Shown here: piece by piece, positions 54,750-63,817 of the stretch
Numbering within the stretch: the stretch's first letter is position 1
How the letters are laid out: every line of letters starts with the position of its first letter
Source of the DNA: an uncultured Planctomycetota bacterium
Lineage (GTDB): Bacteria > Planctomycetota > Planctomycetia > Isosphaerales > Isosphaeraceae
Assembly (NCBI GenBank): GCA_963737655.1
Contig: CAVTTN010000002.1
Span: 1,248,001 to 1,312,000, forward strand
Direction of reading: 5' to 3'
DNA length: 64,000 nucleotides
Made by a program: the position numbers and the translations under genes
The notes under the pieces: model-generated
Seen by the model: only the letters and a program-made list of their open reading frames with translations
The model's database searches: none
What the model was told of the DNA's origin: nothing

Positions 54750-56483
54750 ATGGGCATCCCGACGATGATCGAAGCCTTGGGCGAGGACGCCTCGAAGGCC
54801 GTCCAGGCCGCCCTGGACGACTGGCAGGCCGGCAGCAAGGTCAAGAGGCTCTGGGACGGTGACGCTTCGCTCTGGTCGGGCGCCGACGAAGGCCAGTGGC
54901 TCGGCTGGCTCCACGTGATCGACGAGCCCGGCCGCACCGAGATGGTCAAGAACCTGCAGGCGATCGCCCAGGACGTCCATTCGCTCGGCGTGACCGACGC
55001 CCTGGTCATGGGGATGGGCGGGTCGAGCCTCTGCCCCGAAGTGTTGAAGATGACGTTCGGCCACATTCAGGGCTGGCCCAATCTCCACGTCCTGGATTCG
55101 ACCGTGCCGGCCCAGGTCGCCTCGTTCCGCGACTCGCTCGACCTGGCGAAGACGGTTTGCATCGTCTCGTCGAAGTCCGGCAGCACCACCGAGCCGAACG
55201 TCTTCCGCCAGTACTTCCAGGAGCAGGTCGGCGCCGCGATCGGAGCGGAGAAGGCCGGTTCCAGGTTCCTCGCCGTGACCGACCCGGGCACGAAGATGCA
55301 GGCCGTGGCCGAGCAGAACGAGTTCCGCACGATCGCCTTCGGCGTGCCGTCGATCGGCGGGCGGTTCTCGGCCCTGTCGAATTTCGGGATGGTCCCGGCG
55401 GCCGTGATGGGCCTCGACGTGGCGGATTTCCTCCGCCGGGCCGGCGAGATGGTCGTCGCCTGCGGCCCGAACACCTCGGCCGAGTCGAACCCGGGCGTCC
55501 GCCTCGGCGCGATCCTCGGCGTGATGGCCCGCGACTTCCACAAGGACAAGGTCACCCTGATCACCTCGCCTCCGATCGGAGACCTCGGCGCCTGGCTCGA
55601 ACAACTGCTCGCCGAATCGACCGGAAAGCAGGGCAAGGGCGTGGTCCCCGTCGACGGCGAGGCGATCGGGCCGCCTTCGGCGTACGGGAACGACCGCCTG
55701 TTCGTGTACTTGCGGCTCGAAGCCGCGCCCGATGCCTTGCAAGATGAGGCGGTCTCCGCCCTGGAGAATGCCGGCCATCCGGTGGTTCGCGTGCCGATCG
55801 AGGACCCGATGGACCTGGGCGCCGAGTTCTTCCGCTGGGAGTTCGCCACGGCGGTGGCCGGTTCGATCCTGGGGATCAACGCGTTCAATCAGCCGGACGT
55901 CGAGGCGAGCAAGATCAAGACCCGCGAGCTCTCGGCCGAGTACGCGAAGACGGGCAAGGTTCCCGACGAGGTCCCGGTCTCCGAGGGCGGCGGATTCAAG
56001 CTGTTCACCGACGAGAAGAACGCCGACGCCCTCGCCCGGGCCGCCGCCACGCCCGAGCCGGCCGATTACCTCCGGGCCCACCTCGCCCGGTTCGAGGTCG
56101 GCGATTATTTCGCCCTCACGGCCTATGTCCAGATGGACGCCGAGAACAAGGCGATCCTCGAAGAGATCCGCCACCTCGTGAGGGACGGGCGGCGAGTCGC
56201 GACGACGCTCGGGTTCGGGCCGAGGTTCCTGCACTCGACGGGCCAGCTCCACAAGGGGGGGCCGAACTCGGGCGTGTTCCTGCAAATCACCTCGGACGAC
56301 GCCTTCGACCTGGCGATCCCGGGCGAGGTCTACAGCTTCGGCCTGTTGAAGAGGTTCCAGGCGCAGGGGGATTTCGCCGTCCTGGTCGAGAGAAACCGCC
56401 GGGCCCTGCGCGTCCACCTCGGTCCCGACGTGCCGGAAGGGCTGCGGAAGCTCAAGGAGACCATCCGCGAAGCTCTCGGATGA
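54750..56483 (+). CDS. pgi: Glucose-6-phosphate isomerase-like SIS protein (PGI half of the Tal-Pgi type)
   Basis: WLGWL, GMGGSSL, SSKSGSTTEP, IGGRFSALS, EQLLAESTGKQG, NAFNQPDVEASK, GPRFLHSTGQLHKGGP. Confidence 0.85.
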   Translation: MGIPTMIEALGEDASKAVQAALDDWQAGSKVKRLWDGDASLWSGADEGQWLGWLHVIDEPGRTEMVKNLQAIAQDVHSLGVTDALVMGMGGSSLCPEVLKMTFGHIQGWPNLHVLDSTVPAQVASFRDSLDLAKTVCIVSSKSGSTTEPNVFRQYFQEQVGAAIGAEKAGSRFLAVTDPGTKMQAVAEQNEFRTIAFGVPSIGGRFSALSNFGMVPAAVMGLDVADFLRRAGEMVVACGPNTSAESNPGVRLGAILGVMARDFHKDKVTLITSPPIGDLGAWLEQLLAESTGKQGKGVVPVDGEAIGPPSAYGNDRLFVYLRLEAAPDALQDEAVSALENAGHPVVRVPIEDPMDLGAEFFRWEFATAVAGSILGINAFNQPDVEASKIKTRELSAEYAKTGKVPDEVPVSEGGGFKLFTDEKNADALARAAATPEPADYLRAHLARFEVGDYFALTAYVQMDAENKAILEEIRHLVRDGRRVATTLGFGPRFLHSTGQLHKGGPNSGVFLQITSDDAFDLAIPGEVYSFGLLKRFQAQGDFAVLVERNRRALRVHLGPDVPEGLRKLKETIREALG

Positions 56484-57019
56484 ACCGCCAAGACGCCAAG
56501 ATCGCCAAGGGAAGAGGAGAGGAGAACGCGTTTACTTCTGGGGGTTTCGATGAGCCTTTCCGAAAATCCTGCTCTCCGGACCGAGCCGGATGAAGAACTG
56601 GACGCCCTGGCCCATGCGGTCATCGGCGCGGCCATCGAAGTCCATCGGCATCTCGGTCCGGGCTACCTGGAGGGCGTTTACGAGGACGCCCTGGCTGTCG
56701 AATTCGGCCTGCGTGGCATCGTCTTCGAGCGGCAGAAACCGATCGCCGTCGAGTTCAAGGGGGTCCCCGTCGGTGAGGGTCGGCTCGATTTCCTCGTCGA
56801 AGAGCGTCTGATCGCCGAATTGAAGGCCGTCGAGGAACTGGCGCCGATCCACCGCGCCCAGGTCCTCTCCTATCTCCGAACGACCGGGCCGAGCCTCGGC
56901 CTGCTGATCAACTTCAACGTCACAACCCTGAGGAACGGGATCAAGCGAGTGATCCTCTCCTGATCCTCCTCTCCTCTTCTCTCGTCTTTCCTTGGCGCCC
57001 TTGGCGTCTTGGCGGTTCA
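56481..57019. mobile_element. GxxExxY cassette bounded by terminal inverted repeats (putative small mobile element)
   Basis: 56481-56510 TGAACCGCCAAGACGCCAAGATCGCCAAGG versus the reverse complement of 56990-57019: 28/30 identical. Inner gaagaggagaggag / ctcctctcctcttc tracts also match. Confidence 0.65.
56550..56963 (+). CDS. GxxExxY protein (PD-(D/E)XK nuclease fold)
   Basis: AIEVHRHLGPGYLEGVYE, RLDFLVE, ELKA, AQVLSYLR, GLLINF. Confidence 0.93.
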   Translation: MSLSENPALRTEPDEELDALAHAVIGAAIEVHRHLGPGYLEGVYEDALAVEFGLRGIVFERQKPIAVEFKGVPVGEGRLDFLVEERLIAELKAVEELAPIHRAQVLSYLRTTGPSLGLLINFNVTTLRNGIKRVILS

Positions 57020-57039
57020 CCTTTCCCGGACGATCCACG

Positions 57040-59120
<2,081 letters not shown>

Positions 59121-59124
<4 letters not shown>

Positions 59125-59528
59125 ACCCGCTCGGGACGATCCGCTCGAGGCCGGCCGGTCCCCGCCGATCGCGTCGCAAGACGGTCACGATCGGCGGGAT
59201 GCTCCTGATCGTCGCCCTGTCGGCGGCGGGGCTGAGGCTCCTCCGGGCGATCCTCCCTCTGACCGCATCCCAGGCCGCCCGGGTCGCCCGCGAGGAGGTC
59301 TCCCGGCGCGACCCGGCCTTCGCCGCCGACGCCCAGGTCGTCCAGGTCGCCCCCCGAGAGGAGACCGCCGGCAGGCCGTGGAACTGGGCCTACCGCTGGG
59401 AGGTCGTCCTGAGGGGCCGCGACGCCCCGACCGGGTACTTCGTCGAGATCGACGGCCGCGAAAACGTGAAGGTCGGCCTCGCCTACGACATCCGCCCCGG
59501 CCACTGGTCCTACGACGAGCCGCGATGA
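59121..59528 (+). CDS. Hypothetical membrane-anchored protein (~135 aa)
   Basis: ATGA overlap with the tkt stop; basic N-terminus followed by TM TIGGMLLIVALSAAGL; fills the gap before rpiA. Confidence 0.6.
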
Positions 59529-59559
59529 ACCCGAACCCGATCGAGAAACGGCACGACGC

Positions 59560-60231
59560 ATGAGCGCATCTCACCCCGCCCTCCAGTTCGTCGAGCCCGG
59601 CCAGGTGCTCGGGCTCGGCACCGGCCGATCGGCCGCCGCGTTCATCCGGGCCCTGGGCGATCGGGTCAAGGCGGGCCTGGACGTCCGCGGCGTCCCCACG
59701 TCGAAGGCCTCGGCCGAGCTCGCCCGGTCGCTGGGAATCCCCCTGGTTTCGCTCGACGACATCGACTCGATCGACGTCGCCCTCGACGGCGCCGACGAGG
59801 TCGACCCGGCCCTGAACCTCATCAAGGGCCGGGGCGGCGCGCTGGTCCGCGAGAAGATCGTCGCCGCGGCGGCCCGGCAATTCCTCGTGCTGGTGGGCGA
59901 GGAGAAGCTCGTCCCGGTCCTCGGGGCGAAGGGGGCCCTGCCGGTGGAGGTCGTCCCGTTCGCCCTCGGGTTCTGCCGGAGGAAGCTCGACGCCCTGGGC
60001 TGCCGGCCCTCGCCGAGGACCACGCCCGAGGGCGCCCCGTACATCTCCGACAACGGCAACCCGATCCTGGATTGCCACATCCACGAGCTGGCCGACCCCG
60101 CCGCCCTCGAACGGGCGATCCTCGCCCTGCCCGGGGTCGTGGACACCGGATTGTTCCTCGGGATGGCCTCGGCGGTGATCGTCGGCGATGATGAGACATC
60201 GGCGCGGGTCTTGCGGCGCCCGGGGACCTGA
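59560..60231 (+). CDS. rpiA: Ribose-5-phosphate isomerase A
   Basis: GLGTG, DGADEVD, LIKGRGGALVREK, SDNGN, PGVVDTGLF. Confidence 0.96.
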   Translation: MSASHPALQFVEPGQVLGLGTGRSAAAFIRALGDRVKAGLDVRGVPTSKASAELARSLGIPLVSLDDIDSIDVALDGADEVDPALNLIKGRGGALVREKIVAAAARQFLVLVGEEKLVPVLGAKGALPVEVVPFALGFCRRKLDALGCRPSPRTTPEGAPYISDNGNPILDCHIHELADPAALERAILALPGVVDTGLFLGMASAVIVGDDETSARVLRRPGT

Positions 60232-60255
60232 TCTCCCGTCCAGAAGGAGGATGTC

Positions 60256-60906
60256 ATGAGCCTCGGCACGGCCGTCGAAACCCGATCACCGATCGAATCC
60301 CAGGTCGTCCCCCCTCCGCCCGAATCCGGCGATGCGCCGTATGAGCTGACGGCCGACGAATTCCTCGCTCTCGTCGAAACCGGGGCATTCCGCGAGGGTT
60401 CCCGCATCTACCTCCGGGACGGCCGGATCTACGAGAAAATGGCGAAAACCATCCCCCATTCCCTGCTCGGCTCGATGATCGCCACCGCCCTGATCCGACG
60501 CCTCCCGCCGGGTTGGTTCGTGATCCCCGAGGGACAGTTCAAGGTCGATGACAGGAATTCCCGCCTGCCCGACATCGCCGTGGTCCGGGGGGCCCATCCC
60601 TTCGCCCTCCTCGAACCCGGCGCCTTTCCCGAGGCCAAAGACCTCGGCCTGATCGTCGAGATCTCCGTGACGAGCCTCGCGAAAAACCCGGGCCGGAACC
60701 TCGATCGCTATGCCCGGTCCGGTGTGCCGAGCTACTGGGTCATGGACTTCCCCGGCCGCCGCATCCTCGCCCATTCCGGGCCCCGGGCCGTCGAGGACCG
60801 GGGCGAGTATGAGCACGTCGCGGTCGTCGGGCCCGGCCGGATGATCCCCCTCGTCCTGGACGGCGTCGAGTCCGTCCGGTTCGCCTATGAAGAACTGATG
60901 CCCTGA
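60256..60906 (+). CDS. Uma2/DUF820-family protein
   Basis: [42 protein letters not shown] upstream. Confidence 0.85.
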
Positions 60907-60935
60907 TCGGGATCAAAATCTCAGGAGATGCTGTC

Positions 60936-61961
60936 GTGCAACTCGGAATGGTCGGGCTGGGGCGGATGGGCGCGAACATGGCCCGCCGCCTGATGAAGGG
61001 CGGACACCAGTGCGTCGCCTTCGACATGAACCCGCAGAGCGTCCAGGCCCTGGAGGCCCACGGGGCCGTCGGCGCCTCGTCGATGGAGGACTTCGTCCGG
61101 AAGCTCACCAAGCCCCGGGCCGTCTGGCTGATGATCCCGGCCGCGTTCGTCGACTCGACCCTGGAGAAGTTCGCCGCCATCCTCGAGCCCGACGACATCT
61201 TGATCGACGGCGGCAACTCCTACTACATCGACGACATCGCGCGGGCCAGGACCCTGAAGACCAAGGGCCTGCACTACGTCGATGTCGGCACGAGCGGAGG
61301 CGTGTGGGGCCTGGAGCGCGGCTACTGCCAGATGATCGGCGGCGAGGACGCGGTGGTGAAGCACCTCGACCCGATCTTCAAGACCCTCGCCCCCGGGATC
61401 GACGCCAACCCCGCCCGCACCCCCGGCCGCGAAGGCCAGCCCGCGTCCACCGCCGAGCACGGCTATCTCCACTGCGGGCCCAACGGCGCGGGGCACTTCG
61501 TCAAGATGGTGCACAACGGCATCGAATACGGCATCATGGCCGCGTACGCCGAGGGCCTGAACATCCTCAAGCAGGCCGACATCGGCACCCGCGAGCACGC
61601 CAAGGACGCCGAGACCACCCCCCTGCGGAACCCGGAGCACTATCAATACAAGTTCAACCTCGCCGACGTGGCCGAGAACTGGAGGCGAGGCAGCGTGATC
61701 GGTTCCTGGCTCCTGGACCTCACCGCCAGCGCCCTGGCCAAGGACGAGGGGCTCGTCGAGTTCTCCGGCCGCGTGAGCGACTCGGGCGAGGGCCGCTGGA
61801 CCATCCAGGCCGCCATCGACGAGGCCGTGCCGGCCCACGTCCTCACCACCGCGCTGTATGAACGATTCAGCTCCCGAGGCGAGTCGAATTATGCCGACAA
61901 GCTGATGTCGGCCATGCGCAAGGAATTCGGCGGGCACGTCGAGCGCGCTGCGGGCGGTTGA
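60936..61961 (+). CDS. gnd: 6-phosphogluconate dehydrogenase, decarboxylating, short form
   Basis: [48 protein letters not shown] start after AGGAG. Confidence 0.96.
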
Positions 61962-61966
61962 GAGAT

Positions 61967-62150
61967 TGAACCGCCAAGACGCCAAGTTCGCCAAGGGCAG
62001 AGGAGAGGAGTAGAGCGGGAAGAAATGAGAAACACAGATTAGATCGGATGAGAATTTAACTCGATTTGCAAATCCGCTGATTTGCGCGCTGAATTCTTAC
62101 TCTTCTCCTCCTCTCCTCTCCCCTTGGCGGACCTGGCGCCCCGGCGGTGA
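61967..62150. repeat. Gene-less copy of the GxxExxY-flanking inverted-repeat element (MITE-like)
   Basis: 61967-62010 matches 56481-56524 at 42/44 bases. The right arm (62108-62148) is its imperfect reverse complement (35/41). The interior is ~95 bp and AT-rich. Confidence 0.8.
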
Positions 62151-62185
62151 GTCCGATTCCCCATCCACCAGTCGGAGCCCAGAGA

Positions 62186-63817
62186 ATGGCGACAGCCGAG
62201 ATCACGAACCCGCTGACGGCCGGGACGCCCCGGACCTTGCTGCCCCAGCCGTGCGTCCTGGTGATCTTCGGCGCGGCCGGGGACCTCTCCTGGCGGAAGC
62301 TCCTCCCGGCCGTCTACAACCTGAACGTCGATGGCGTCCTGCCGTCGAACTTCGCCGTCGTCGGCTTCGGGATGAAGCCCGACGGGCCGATCGAGGGCGA
62401 CCCGGACCAGTACATCCGCGACCGCGCCCGGGACGGCATCGAGCACAACTCCCGCCAGCCCCTGGACGAGTCCCACTGGAACGACTTCGCCCGCGCCCTG
62501 TTCTTCGTCGAAGGCTCGTTCAGCGACCTCCGCGCCTACGAGCAGCTCAAGGCGAAGCTCGACGCCGTGGACCAGCAGTTCGGCATCCCCGGCAGCCGGG
62601 TCTTCTACCTCTCGATCCCCCCGGGCCTCGTCAACGTCTGCGTCGAGCGGCTCAAGGCCGCCGGCCTCGTCGCCGACCCCCAGGACAAGCGCAAGTTCAC
62701 CCGGGTGATCGTCGAGAAGCCGATCGGCCGCGACCTGGAGAGCGCCCGGGCCGTCGTCAACGGCGTGGGCCAGGCGTTCTCCGAGGACCAGACCTACCGG
62801 ATCGACCATTATCTCGGCAAGGAGACCGTCCAGAACTTGCTGGTCCTCCGGTTCGCCAACAGCATCTTCGAGCCGCTCTGGAACGGCAAGTACATCGACC
62901 ACGTGCAGATCACCGTGGCCGAGGAAGAAGGCGTCTCGCACTTCGACGACGACGGCCGGATGACCGCCAGCCGGATCGGCTATTACGAGGGCGTGGGCGC
63001 CCTCCGCGACATGGTCCAGAACCACATGCTCCAGGTCCTCTGCCTGACCGCGATGGAGCCGCCCTACTCGCTCGACCCCGACGTCGTCCGCGACGCCAAG
63101 GCCGGCGTCCTCCACTGCCTGAGGCCCATGACCGACGCCGACGTCCAGGCCAGCGTCGTCCGGGCCCAGTACATCGACGGCGACGAGATGGGCGTGGCCG
63201 TCCCGGGCTATCGCACCGAGGTCCGGAGATATTACGAGGAGTTGCTCAGGAAGCCCGTCCCGCCCGAGGCCGTGAACTCCACGACCGAGACGTTCGTCGC
63301 CATGCGCCTGTTCGTCGACAACTGGCGATGGGCGGGCGTCCCGTTCTACCTCCGCACCGGCAAGCGCCTGCCGAAGCGCGCGAGCGAGGTCGCCATCCAG
63401 TTCAAGGACGTGCCGAACGTCCTGTTCAACGCCCATCCGGACGTCCCCCTGGAGCCGACGGTGCTCTCCCTGAGGGTCCAGCCCGAGGAGGGCCTGTCGA
63501 TGAGGATCGCCTCCAAGCTCCCCGGGCCGAAGGTGCGGATCTACCCCGTCAAGATGGAGTTCAACTACTCCGAGAGCTTCGGCGGGACCACCCCGGAAGC
63601 ATATGAACGATTGATCCTCGACGTGATGGCCGGGGATGCCACCTTGTTCATGCGTCGAGACGCCGTGGAGGCGGCCTGGCAGTTCGTCATGCCGATCCTC
63701 GACCACTGGCAGAGGAGCCACTCGCGCTACCTGCCCGAGTACCGGGCCGGGACGTGGGGGCCCCTGGAAGCCGATCGCCTGATCGAGTCCGACGGCCGAA
63801 GCTGGAGGACCCTATGA
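62186..63817 (+). CDS. zwf: Glucose-6-phosphate 1-dehydrogenase
   Basis: IFGAAGDL, EKPIG, YRIDHYLGKE, RDMVQNH, WAGVPFYLRTGK, EAYERL. Confidence 0.97.
   Translation: MATAEITNPLTAGTPRTLLPQPCVLVIFGAAGDLSWRKLLPAVYNLNVDGVLPSNFAVVGFGMKPDGPIEGDPDQYIRDRARDGIEHNSRQPLDESHWNDFARALFFVEGSFSDLRAYEQLKAKLDAVDQQFGIPGSRVFYLSIPPGLVNVCVERLKAAGLVADPQDKRKFTRVIVEKPIGRDLESARAVVNGVGQAFSEDQTYRIDHYLGKETVQNLLVLRFANSIFEPLWNGKYIDHVQITVAEEEGVSHFDDDGRMTASRIGYYEGVGALRDMVQNHMLQVLCLTAMEPPYSLDPDVVRDAKAGVLHCLRPMTDADVQASVVRAQYIDGDEMGVAVPGYRTEVRRYYEELLRKPVPPEAVNSTTETFVAMRLFVDNWRWAGVPFYLRTGKRLPKRASEVAIQFKDVPNVLFNAHPDVPLEPTVLSLRVQPEEGLSMRIASKLPGPKVRIYPVKMEFNYSESFGGTTPEAYERLILDVMAGDATLFMRRDAVEAAWQFVMPILDHWQRSHSRYLPEYRAGTWGPLEADRLIESDGRSWRTL

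Follow-up and report, generated by a model that had tools for sequence, protein, structure and literature searches.

The window, the whole stretch of 64,000 nt that was analyzed, carries a co-directional set of pentose-phosphate genes in the order pgi-like, tkt, gnd, and zwf. A gene-less hairpin element occupies the spacer between gnd and zwf, and a longer cassette with a GxxExxY gene in its loop lies 5.5 kb upstream of it. The features are listed by window position; positions elsewhere in the genome are given as C2 coordinates.

56480..57020, no strand: cassette of 541 nt, the only gene-bearing copy of the GCCAAG family
56550..56963, + strand: GxxExxY gene of 137 aa, PD-(D/E)XK fold, in the cassette loop (TIGR04256, 2.2e-40; PF13366, 3.8e-40; pLDDT 92.8)
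60936..61961, + strand: gnd-like 6-phosphogluconate dehydrogenase gene (NF007161, 2.1e-139; TIGR00872, 1.2e-119), TGA stop at 61959-61961
61966..62152, no strand: gene-less hairpin element of 187 nt (nhmmer pair C2:1309966-1310152; fold z -8.6)
61966-61972: left end of the element, TTGAACC, preceding the left-arm units
61973..61995, + strand: left arm, three intact tandem GCCAAG units, fitting the family pattern
61995..62029, + strand: GA-rich (polypurine) tract of the left arm, paired with the CT tract in the fold
62030..62090, no strand: decayed inner CGCAGAT-type hairpin with an AT-rich loop at 62050-62069, recognized by eye on comparison with inner modules elsewhere in the family
62091..62123, + strand: CT-rich (polypyrimidine) tract of the right arm
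62123..62152, + strand: right arm, three inverted units CTTGGC, CCTGGC, and CCCGGC (two decayed) and the decayed end GGCGGTGAGT (nhmmer, 24.6 bits)
62187..63817, + strand: zwf, glucose-6-phosphate dehydrogenase (TIGR00871, 6.2e-170), likely ATG at 62187

Five bases (GAGAT) separate the gnd-like TGA from the start of the left arm at 61967, and the arm (61967-62010) is identical to the left arm of the cassette (56481-56524) at 42 of 44 positions; on recounting, both figures agreed with those of an earlier note made from the sequence. The same note described the right arm as more decayed, which is borne out by the nhmmer scores (24.6 bits, against 50.0 bits for the left arm), but its count of 35/41 was not reproduced, the global alignment with the right arm of the cassette giving 31/45 matches. 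The right arm is complementary to the left arm of the cassette at 80% over 49 nt and to its own left arm at 78% over 60 nt, and its changes run towards G/C. The interior (62011-62107) was found as described, AT-rich and non-coding in a high-GC context, with 97 nt in place of about 95 bp, 41% G+C compared to 68% in the flanking genes, an AT-rich core of 61 nt (62030-62090), and no open reading frame of its own of at least 50 aa. The likely ATG of zwf is situated 34 nt 3' of the element (ATGGCGAC), and this start is conserved in relatives.

The 187-nt element is an imperfect palindrome that folds into a single long hairpin. Since a palindrome reads alike on both strands, its orientation carries no information, and the shared orientation with the cassette, noted earlier, says nothing about the relation of the two. 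The predicted RNA fold has an energy of -100.9 kcal/mol compared to -64.2 ± 4.3 for shuffled sequences (n = 200; z -8.6; no shuffle as good), and the DNA fold -47.3 compared to -27.8 ± 3.3 (z -5.9), values so far below those of the shuffles that the palindrome is not due to chance. Co-transcription of the spacer would place a hairpin modeled at about -101 kcal/mol between gnd and zwf in the RNA. No terminator-like site was detected in 61500-62600, the right flank CCGATTCCCC lacking a T-run shape, and no sigma-70-like promoter was found at the gnd-zwf copy. In the Rfam 15 search of 55500-63000 (E up to 1), no family reached its gathering score; the best match was a model of a plant miRNA precursor (35.7 bits, gathering score 96), which is explained by the element being a long hairpin.

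The cassette and the gnd-zwf element, treated in the earlier note as a full and an empty copy, belong to a genome-wide family. With the cassette arm as the seed, nhmmer was run for three rounds with pairing allowed over up to 2000 nt and returned 99 arm matches in the 7.63-Mb genome, corresponding to 44 pairs (88 arms) and 11 solo arms. One of the 44 pairs encloses a gene and the other 43 are gene-less; the pairs span 124 to 541 nt, the gene-bearing one being the longest. The common arm plan comprises a TTGAACC-like end, three tandem GCCAAG units of 8 to 9 nt, and a GA-rich tract, so that by inspection the arms are direct tandem units with a GA tract and not short palindromes. The inner parts of the copies have 30 to 64% G+C in a genome of 69% G+C. 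The arms co-vary, as in 28 of the 44 elements the best-matching arm of all 44 was the element's own partner. In the gnd-zwf copy, the own partner ranked 25th of 44 with a within-element arm identity of 0.78, showing that this copy has lost its arm symmetry; its closest arm match in the genome by BLAST lies at C2:4608872 (96% over 49 nt). Identity between full-length copies is 81% at most, so that none are close, and the spread was therefore old or slow, with no recent move caught. Direct target duplications of at least 3 nt were found at none of the 44 elements with any of three boundary definitions, a result equal to that of shifted controls.

Many interiors carry a complete second, nested hairpin of CGCAGAT units, and 8 of the 25 strict CGCAGAT hairpins of the genome are located centrally inside GCCAAG elements. 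Nesting was observed within the GCCAAG family as well, at C2:4510363-4510603 and C2:6996760-6996944, where the inner arm pair starts directly after GGGGAG of the outer, more decayed pair. Another type of palindrome, GTAGG(C/T)CCGAC...GTCGG(A/G)CCTAC-like, is present inside the larger GCCAAG elements C2:2355744-2356161 and C2:7025283-7025612, and a similar one upstream of tkt in the congener G002; it may represent a further repeat family.

The position of the elements relative to genes was analyzed with a crude GC3-based ORF caller. Facing gene 3' ends lay within 50 nt of the element in 47 of 53 cases (median 12 nt), and facing 5' ends in 8 of 35 (median 105 nt), in agreement with the preference for sites just past stop codons proposed earlier. 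The 44 elements were found in 15 convergent, 23 co-directional, and 6 divergent settings, a distribution differing from that of all spacers of at least 100 nt (17% convergent, 60% co-directional, and 22% divergent; chi-square P = 0.03), and in the co-directional settings the element was nearer to the upstream stop in 20 of 23 (P = 5e-4). The stop codon of a neighboring gene falls within the outermost bases of seven elements, and the TGA of the pgi-like gene falls in the first bases of the 541-nt cassette. At C2:1146384-1146605, a 222-nt element splits convergent genes that are 16 to 55 nt apart in the relatives G002, G003, and G012, and both genes terminate in the terminal TAA of the element in the genome under study (G000), meaning that the insert rewrote both C termini. 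At site 2807999, the right end of the element (TCAATCTCC) matches the native gene end of four relatives, a coincidence which, judged from the sequence, may reflect homology-guided insertion or chance.

Orthologous sites were compared in related genomes. In the gnd-zwf spacer, the element is absent from the sequences of G002, which belongs to the same genus, and of G008, G012, and G013, and in G004 and G015 the BLAST coordinates leave a spacer of only about 80 and 90 nt, respectively. The element-free spacer of G002 contains three tandem GGGGAC units just past the gnd stop. The same spot in the congener G001 is taken by a different hairpin of about 85 nt and of the CGCAGAT type, inside which two contigs of that assembly end. 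The orthologous sites of six further copies were sought, 2807999 and 4937352 remaining without a clean comparison. At site 1146384, no element is present in G002, G003, and G012, whose flanking matches are 16, 25, and 55 nt apart, and the element at site 5211260 is absent in G003 and G012. In G002, site 391283 (C2:391283-391471) is empty (11 nt), whereas G000 and G003 have a GCCAAG-type element there and G008 has a CACAGAG-type hairpin, which from the sequences points to either a reused hot spot or arms changing type in place. A decayed GCCAGG left arm was present at site 2149661 in G003. In copies with long complementary flanks, checked for an inverted target duplication or a prior hairpin, the flanks were too diverged or the sites otherwise occupied, and at the cassette site of G002 tkt is preceded by a gene other than pgi. 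The filled and empty orthologous sites indicate past mobility, which had been suggested on the basis of the full and empty copies. The family is neither limited to two copies nor fixed in relatives, and no member has the look of an intrinsic terminator.

The protein encoded in the cassette was aligned with its homologs, 27 of 30 GxxExxY proteins being used after two near-duplicates and one protein interrupted by an internal stop were left out. Residues G38, E41, Y44, E51, and D80 are invariant in the 27 proteins and E90 and K92 nearly so; E41, D80, E90, and K92 are the residues of the nuclease motif. The PDB sequence search gave no match at E up to 1. The fold search with the protein model returned weak PD-(D/E)XK neighbors, namely, lambda exonuclease (7e-4, TM 0.48) and, weaker, RecE, Cas4, and Hjc, and these modeled similarities support the PD-(D/E)XK fold and not any specific activity. 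The function of GxxExxY (PF13366) is listed as "Unknown" in the available text of a superfamily survey (PMC3424549).

Three GxxExxY genes are present in G000, each between inverted tandem-unit arms of a distinct type (GCCAAG, CACGAAG, and degenerate CGCCGAT/CGCAGAT), and each of the three unit types was found also in gene-less hairpins. Inverted arms of tandem 7- to 9-nt units are common to gene-less copies and the GxxExxY-bearing copy of the same genome. Thirty GxxExxY loci were fetched from 18 of 31 related genomes. Flank inverted-repeat scores above 35, the value at the 95th percentile for 840 pairs of mismatched flanks, were found at 23 of the 30 loci and at 2 of 300 small genes drawn at random from G000. 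The arms of the relatives' loci consist of a TTCACC-like end and about three units. At several loci (L027, L048, L001, and L045), the longest ORF begins within the left arm; from such an in-arm start, the units would be translated as short peptide repeats (such as DTE/NTE or TKY runs). Two near-identical tandem GxxExxY cassettes with CACGGAA-type arms, about 420 nt apart, are located at G010:C12:108537-109643.

The unit patterns, picked after the arms had been seen, were counted in the 31 genomes, which are kin and include several fragmented assemblies:

GCCAAG x3: 89 in G000; 0 to 6 in the others, mostly coding or microsatellite matches
CACGRAG x3: 23 in G000 and 38 in G012; at most 5 in the others
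CGCRGAG x3: 39 in G017, 25 in G001, 24 in G008, 18 in G003, and 12 in G002; at most 2 in the others
CGCAGAT x2: 81 in G000, 63 in G008, 45 in G001, 23 in G020, 12 in G003, 10 in G017, 8 in G010, and 4 in G018; at most 2 in the others

Abundant hairpin families mostly match the arms of the GxxExxY gene of the same genome. Among these genomes, GCCAAG is abundant in the G000 species only, the CACGRAG-rich genomes G000 and G012 both own a GxxExxY gene with CACGRAG arms, and GxxExxY genes with CGCRGAG arms occur in the five CGCRGAG-rich genomes (at least 12 matches) and in no others. The picture for CGCAGAT is mixed: a gene in arms of this type is present in G000, G008, G010, and G018; in G020, the gene of a CGCAGAT-clade protein lacks detectable arms and yet the genome has 23 CGCAGAT arm matches; and in the fragmented assemblies of G001, G003, and G017 CGCAGAT hairpins occur and no CGCAGAT-armed GxxExxY gene was found. 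In the tree of all 30 GxxExxY proteins, the clade tracks the unit type and the GCCAAG protein stands alone, a pattern that would also arise without recognition if gene and arms were inherited as one unit. A looser GCCAAG pattern gave 98 arm matches in G000, 11 in G003, 6 in G001, and none in G002, and both units were intact in 65/98 in G000, compared to 1/11 in G003 and 0/6 in G001, the latter two being fragmented assemblies and the only two genomes behind this comparison. The unit changes in these congeners are A to G, as in the right arm of the gnd-zwf copy, and no GCCAAG-armed GxxExxY gene was among the matches found in G001 and G003. Decayed GCCAAG relics in genomes where the gene was not found fit the prediction that the hairpins depend on their cognate gene, as described for REPINs without a RAYT. 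A true RAYT is not the partner, given that all seven Y1-transposase (PF01797) matches in the genome are at least 40 kb from any arm and have no unit motifs within 800 nt.

Genes of another kind occur in similar surroundings. Both four-helix-bundle genes (TIGR02436) of the genome, at C2:5656069-5659392 and, about 4 kb before the start of the window, at C2:1240788-1244108, have long inverted repeats of tandemly arrayed heptamers on both sides, (GTCAGTT)n/(AACTGAC)n and (GCAGTGG)n/(CCACTGC)n. These arms are 90 to 128 nt long, with unit numbers differing between the two sides. As an unrelated fold occupies similar hairpins, the arms may not be nuclease specific.

The gnd-zwf element very probably belongs to a hairpin family that was once mobile, as a gene-less copy in decay, and the family probably depends on the GxxExxY nuclease, as suggested by the correspondence of unit types and genes in the sequences. 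The best reading, which we consider probable, is that of a non-autonomous partner of a PD-(D/E)XK nuclease, comparable to REPIN/RAYT with another enzyme. The element would have entered the gnd-zwf spacer after the lineage had split from several congeners, and its two arms, each with an end, three tandem units, and a GA tract, would pair into the long hairpin. The GxxExxY nuclease of the cassette may recognize the repeated units and maintain or spread gene-less copies in trans, as RAYT does for REPINs. Copies land or survive directly past stop codons, at times supplying the stop, and can nest in the apex of other hairpins. We infer both the action of the nuclease on the arms and the mode of copying. 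A wider and more tentative proposal, somewhat less likely to be right than wrong, is that each GxxExxY protein is a sequence-reading PD-(D/E)XK nuclease that maintains its own population of gene-less hairpins in trans through the tandem 8- to 9-nt units, that new families arise when the specificity changes, and that loss of the cognate gene leads to decay, with the hairpins inserting at gene 3' ends with their own stops and nesting in each other's apex. This would constitute a second, enzymatically unrelated symbiosis of the REPIN/RAYT kind, of which the gnd-zwf copy would be a dying member.

The main alternative to this dependence on the nuclease is that the hairpins spread or persist in some other way, be it through template switching at palindromes, through a different trans-acting enzyme, or simply through vertical descent with decay, and that the GxxExxY gene is a passenger with a tendency to land in hairpin loops. 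We regard this as unlikely, though by no means negligible. Hairpins do accept other DNA at the apex, as seen from the strict CGCAGAT hairpins inside GCCAAG elements (8/25), unrelated TIGR02436 genes occupy similar repeat-built hairpins, and no matching gene was found for the CGCAGAT hairpins of G001, G003, and G017. Against it stand the three hairpin families of the genome, which have one gene-bearing copy apiece and a different GxxExxY paralog in each, and the exact agreement between the five CGCRGAG-rich genomes and the five with such a gene. The CGCAGAT-clade protein of G020, which coexists with 23 arm matches without having detectable arms itself, the decay of relics where a GCCAAG-armed gene was not found, and the absence of all seven Y1 transposases from within 40 kb of an arm or from the vicinity of the motifs also argue against it.

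Two further explanations concern the gnd-zwf copy itself. A regulatory device of the host, be it a REP-like mRNA stabilizer, a processing site, or an insulator, could set the gnd:zwf ratio and be kept for that purpose, which would suit the very stable predicted RNA hairpin, the location in a co-directional pentose-phosphate row, and the strong preference of the family for gene 3' ends. This is improbable in view of the same gene pair occurring without the element in six relatives, the decay of the right arm towards G/C, and the lack of a T-run terminator shape and of any Rfam family above threshold. Descent from the neighboring cassette by internal deletion, with the gene lost in place or on copying, was one of the two origins offered in the earlier note, the other being a non-autonomous derivative. 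Such an origin would account for the left arm matching that of the cassette at 42/44 positions at a distance of 5.5 kb, but it is very improbable: when the interior was aligned to the GxxExxY gene region, the BLAST matches covered the arms only, with a GA/CT tract and a decayed CGCAGAT hairpin in place of any gene remnant, and the lack of shared coding sequence implies that the copy is not an internally deleted cassette. Its interior modules are those usually found in the rest of the gene-less copies, there are 43 other pairs without a gene, and the closest arm match lies elsewhere, at C2:4608872. Of the earlier proposal, the gene-less relative stands, as do the past mobility and the sites just past stop codons; the dispersed family to which the copy belongs comprises 44 pairs and 11 solo arms.

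If true, the nuclease-hairpin system would assign a function to the widespread GxxExxY (PF13366) family, account for many odd intergenic palindromes in G+C-rich genomes, and provide a second independent case for testing ideas on long-lived intragenomic replicators. To our knowledge, REP-like repeats outside Proteobacteria have no known driver. The hairpins are also relevant to annotation, as they break short-read assemblies, with contigs of G001 ending inside one, and shift or supply the stop codons of neighboring genes. A published description of GxxExxY-linked hairpin repeats was not found in the open-access literature (PMC and bioRxiv) and may exist elsewhere; in the available text of one paper of that literature, the name GxxExxY serves only as a domain label. 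For the combination of IVS protein, inverted repeat, and heptamer, the best matches listed in the open-access literature contained nothing relevant besides heptamer direct repeats.

Three known systems resemble the family. Miniature inverted-repeat transposable elements (MITEs), derived from insertion sequences with a DDE transposase, are gene-less and short, have inverted repeats at their ends, reach many copies, and lie mostly between genes. The GCCAAG copies are likewise short, mostly gene-less, inverted-repeat bounded, multicopy, and mostly intergenic. Unlike MITEs, they have no target-site duplication (0/44, at least 3 nt), and no larger, transposase-bearing partner occurs within the same arms, since the pairs are at most 541 nt long and the only gene is that of the 137-aa GxxExxY protein.

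The intervening sequence (IVS) of the 23S rRNA gene with the S23p protein in Coxiella burnetii, as described in the available text of PMC4990558, shares with the family a long stem formed by inverted flanks, a loop holding a small ORF or nothing, insertion in a transcribed region, a patchy distribution, and a view of the insert as selfish. The four-helix-bundle family of its ORF also occurs in repeat-built hairpins of the present genome. The gnd-zwf element differs in lying between protein-coding genes and not in helix 25 or 45, and in having no ORF; excision by RNase III is a feature of the IVS and would be conjectural in the element.

The closest resemblance is to REPINs and their RAYTs. The gene is here of the PD-(D/E)XK type (GxxExxY, TIGR04256/PF13366) and not an HUH Y1 transposase (IS200-like), the arms consist of tandem direct 8- to 9-nt units with a GA tract in place of short palindromic REPs, and the hairpins nest, while the link to the enzyme is correlative. 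Common to both, according to the available text of PMC3116915, are inverted doublets forming extragenic hairpins of about 100 to 300 nt, pairs far outnumbering singlets, co-changing hairpin sides, and one gene-bearing copy flanked by the same repeats. In both systems, as far as the available text on REPINs goes, a single genome contains several families side by side, each of them with a gene of its own. REPIN populations decay without their RAYT (available text of bioRxiv 10.1101/2021.07.10.451892), and the GCCAAG relics look decayed in the two fragmented congener assemblies in which no such gene was found. The gnd-zwf copy looks like a passenger in a kind of bacterial selfish DNA that is apparently undescribed.
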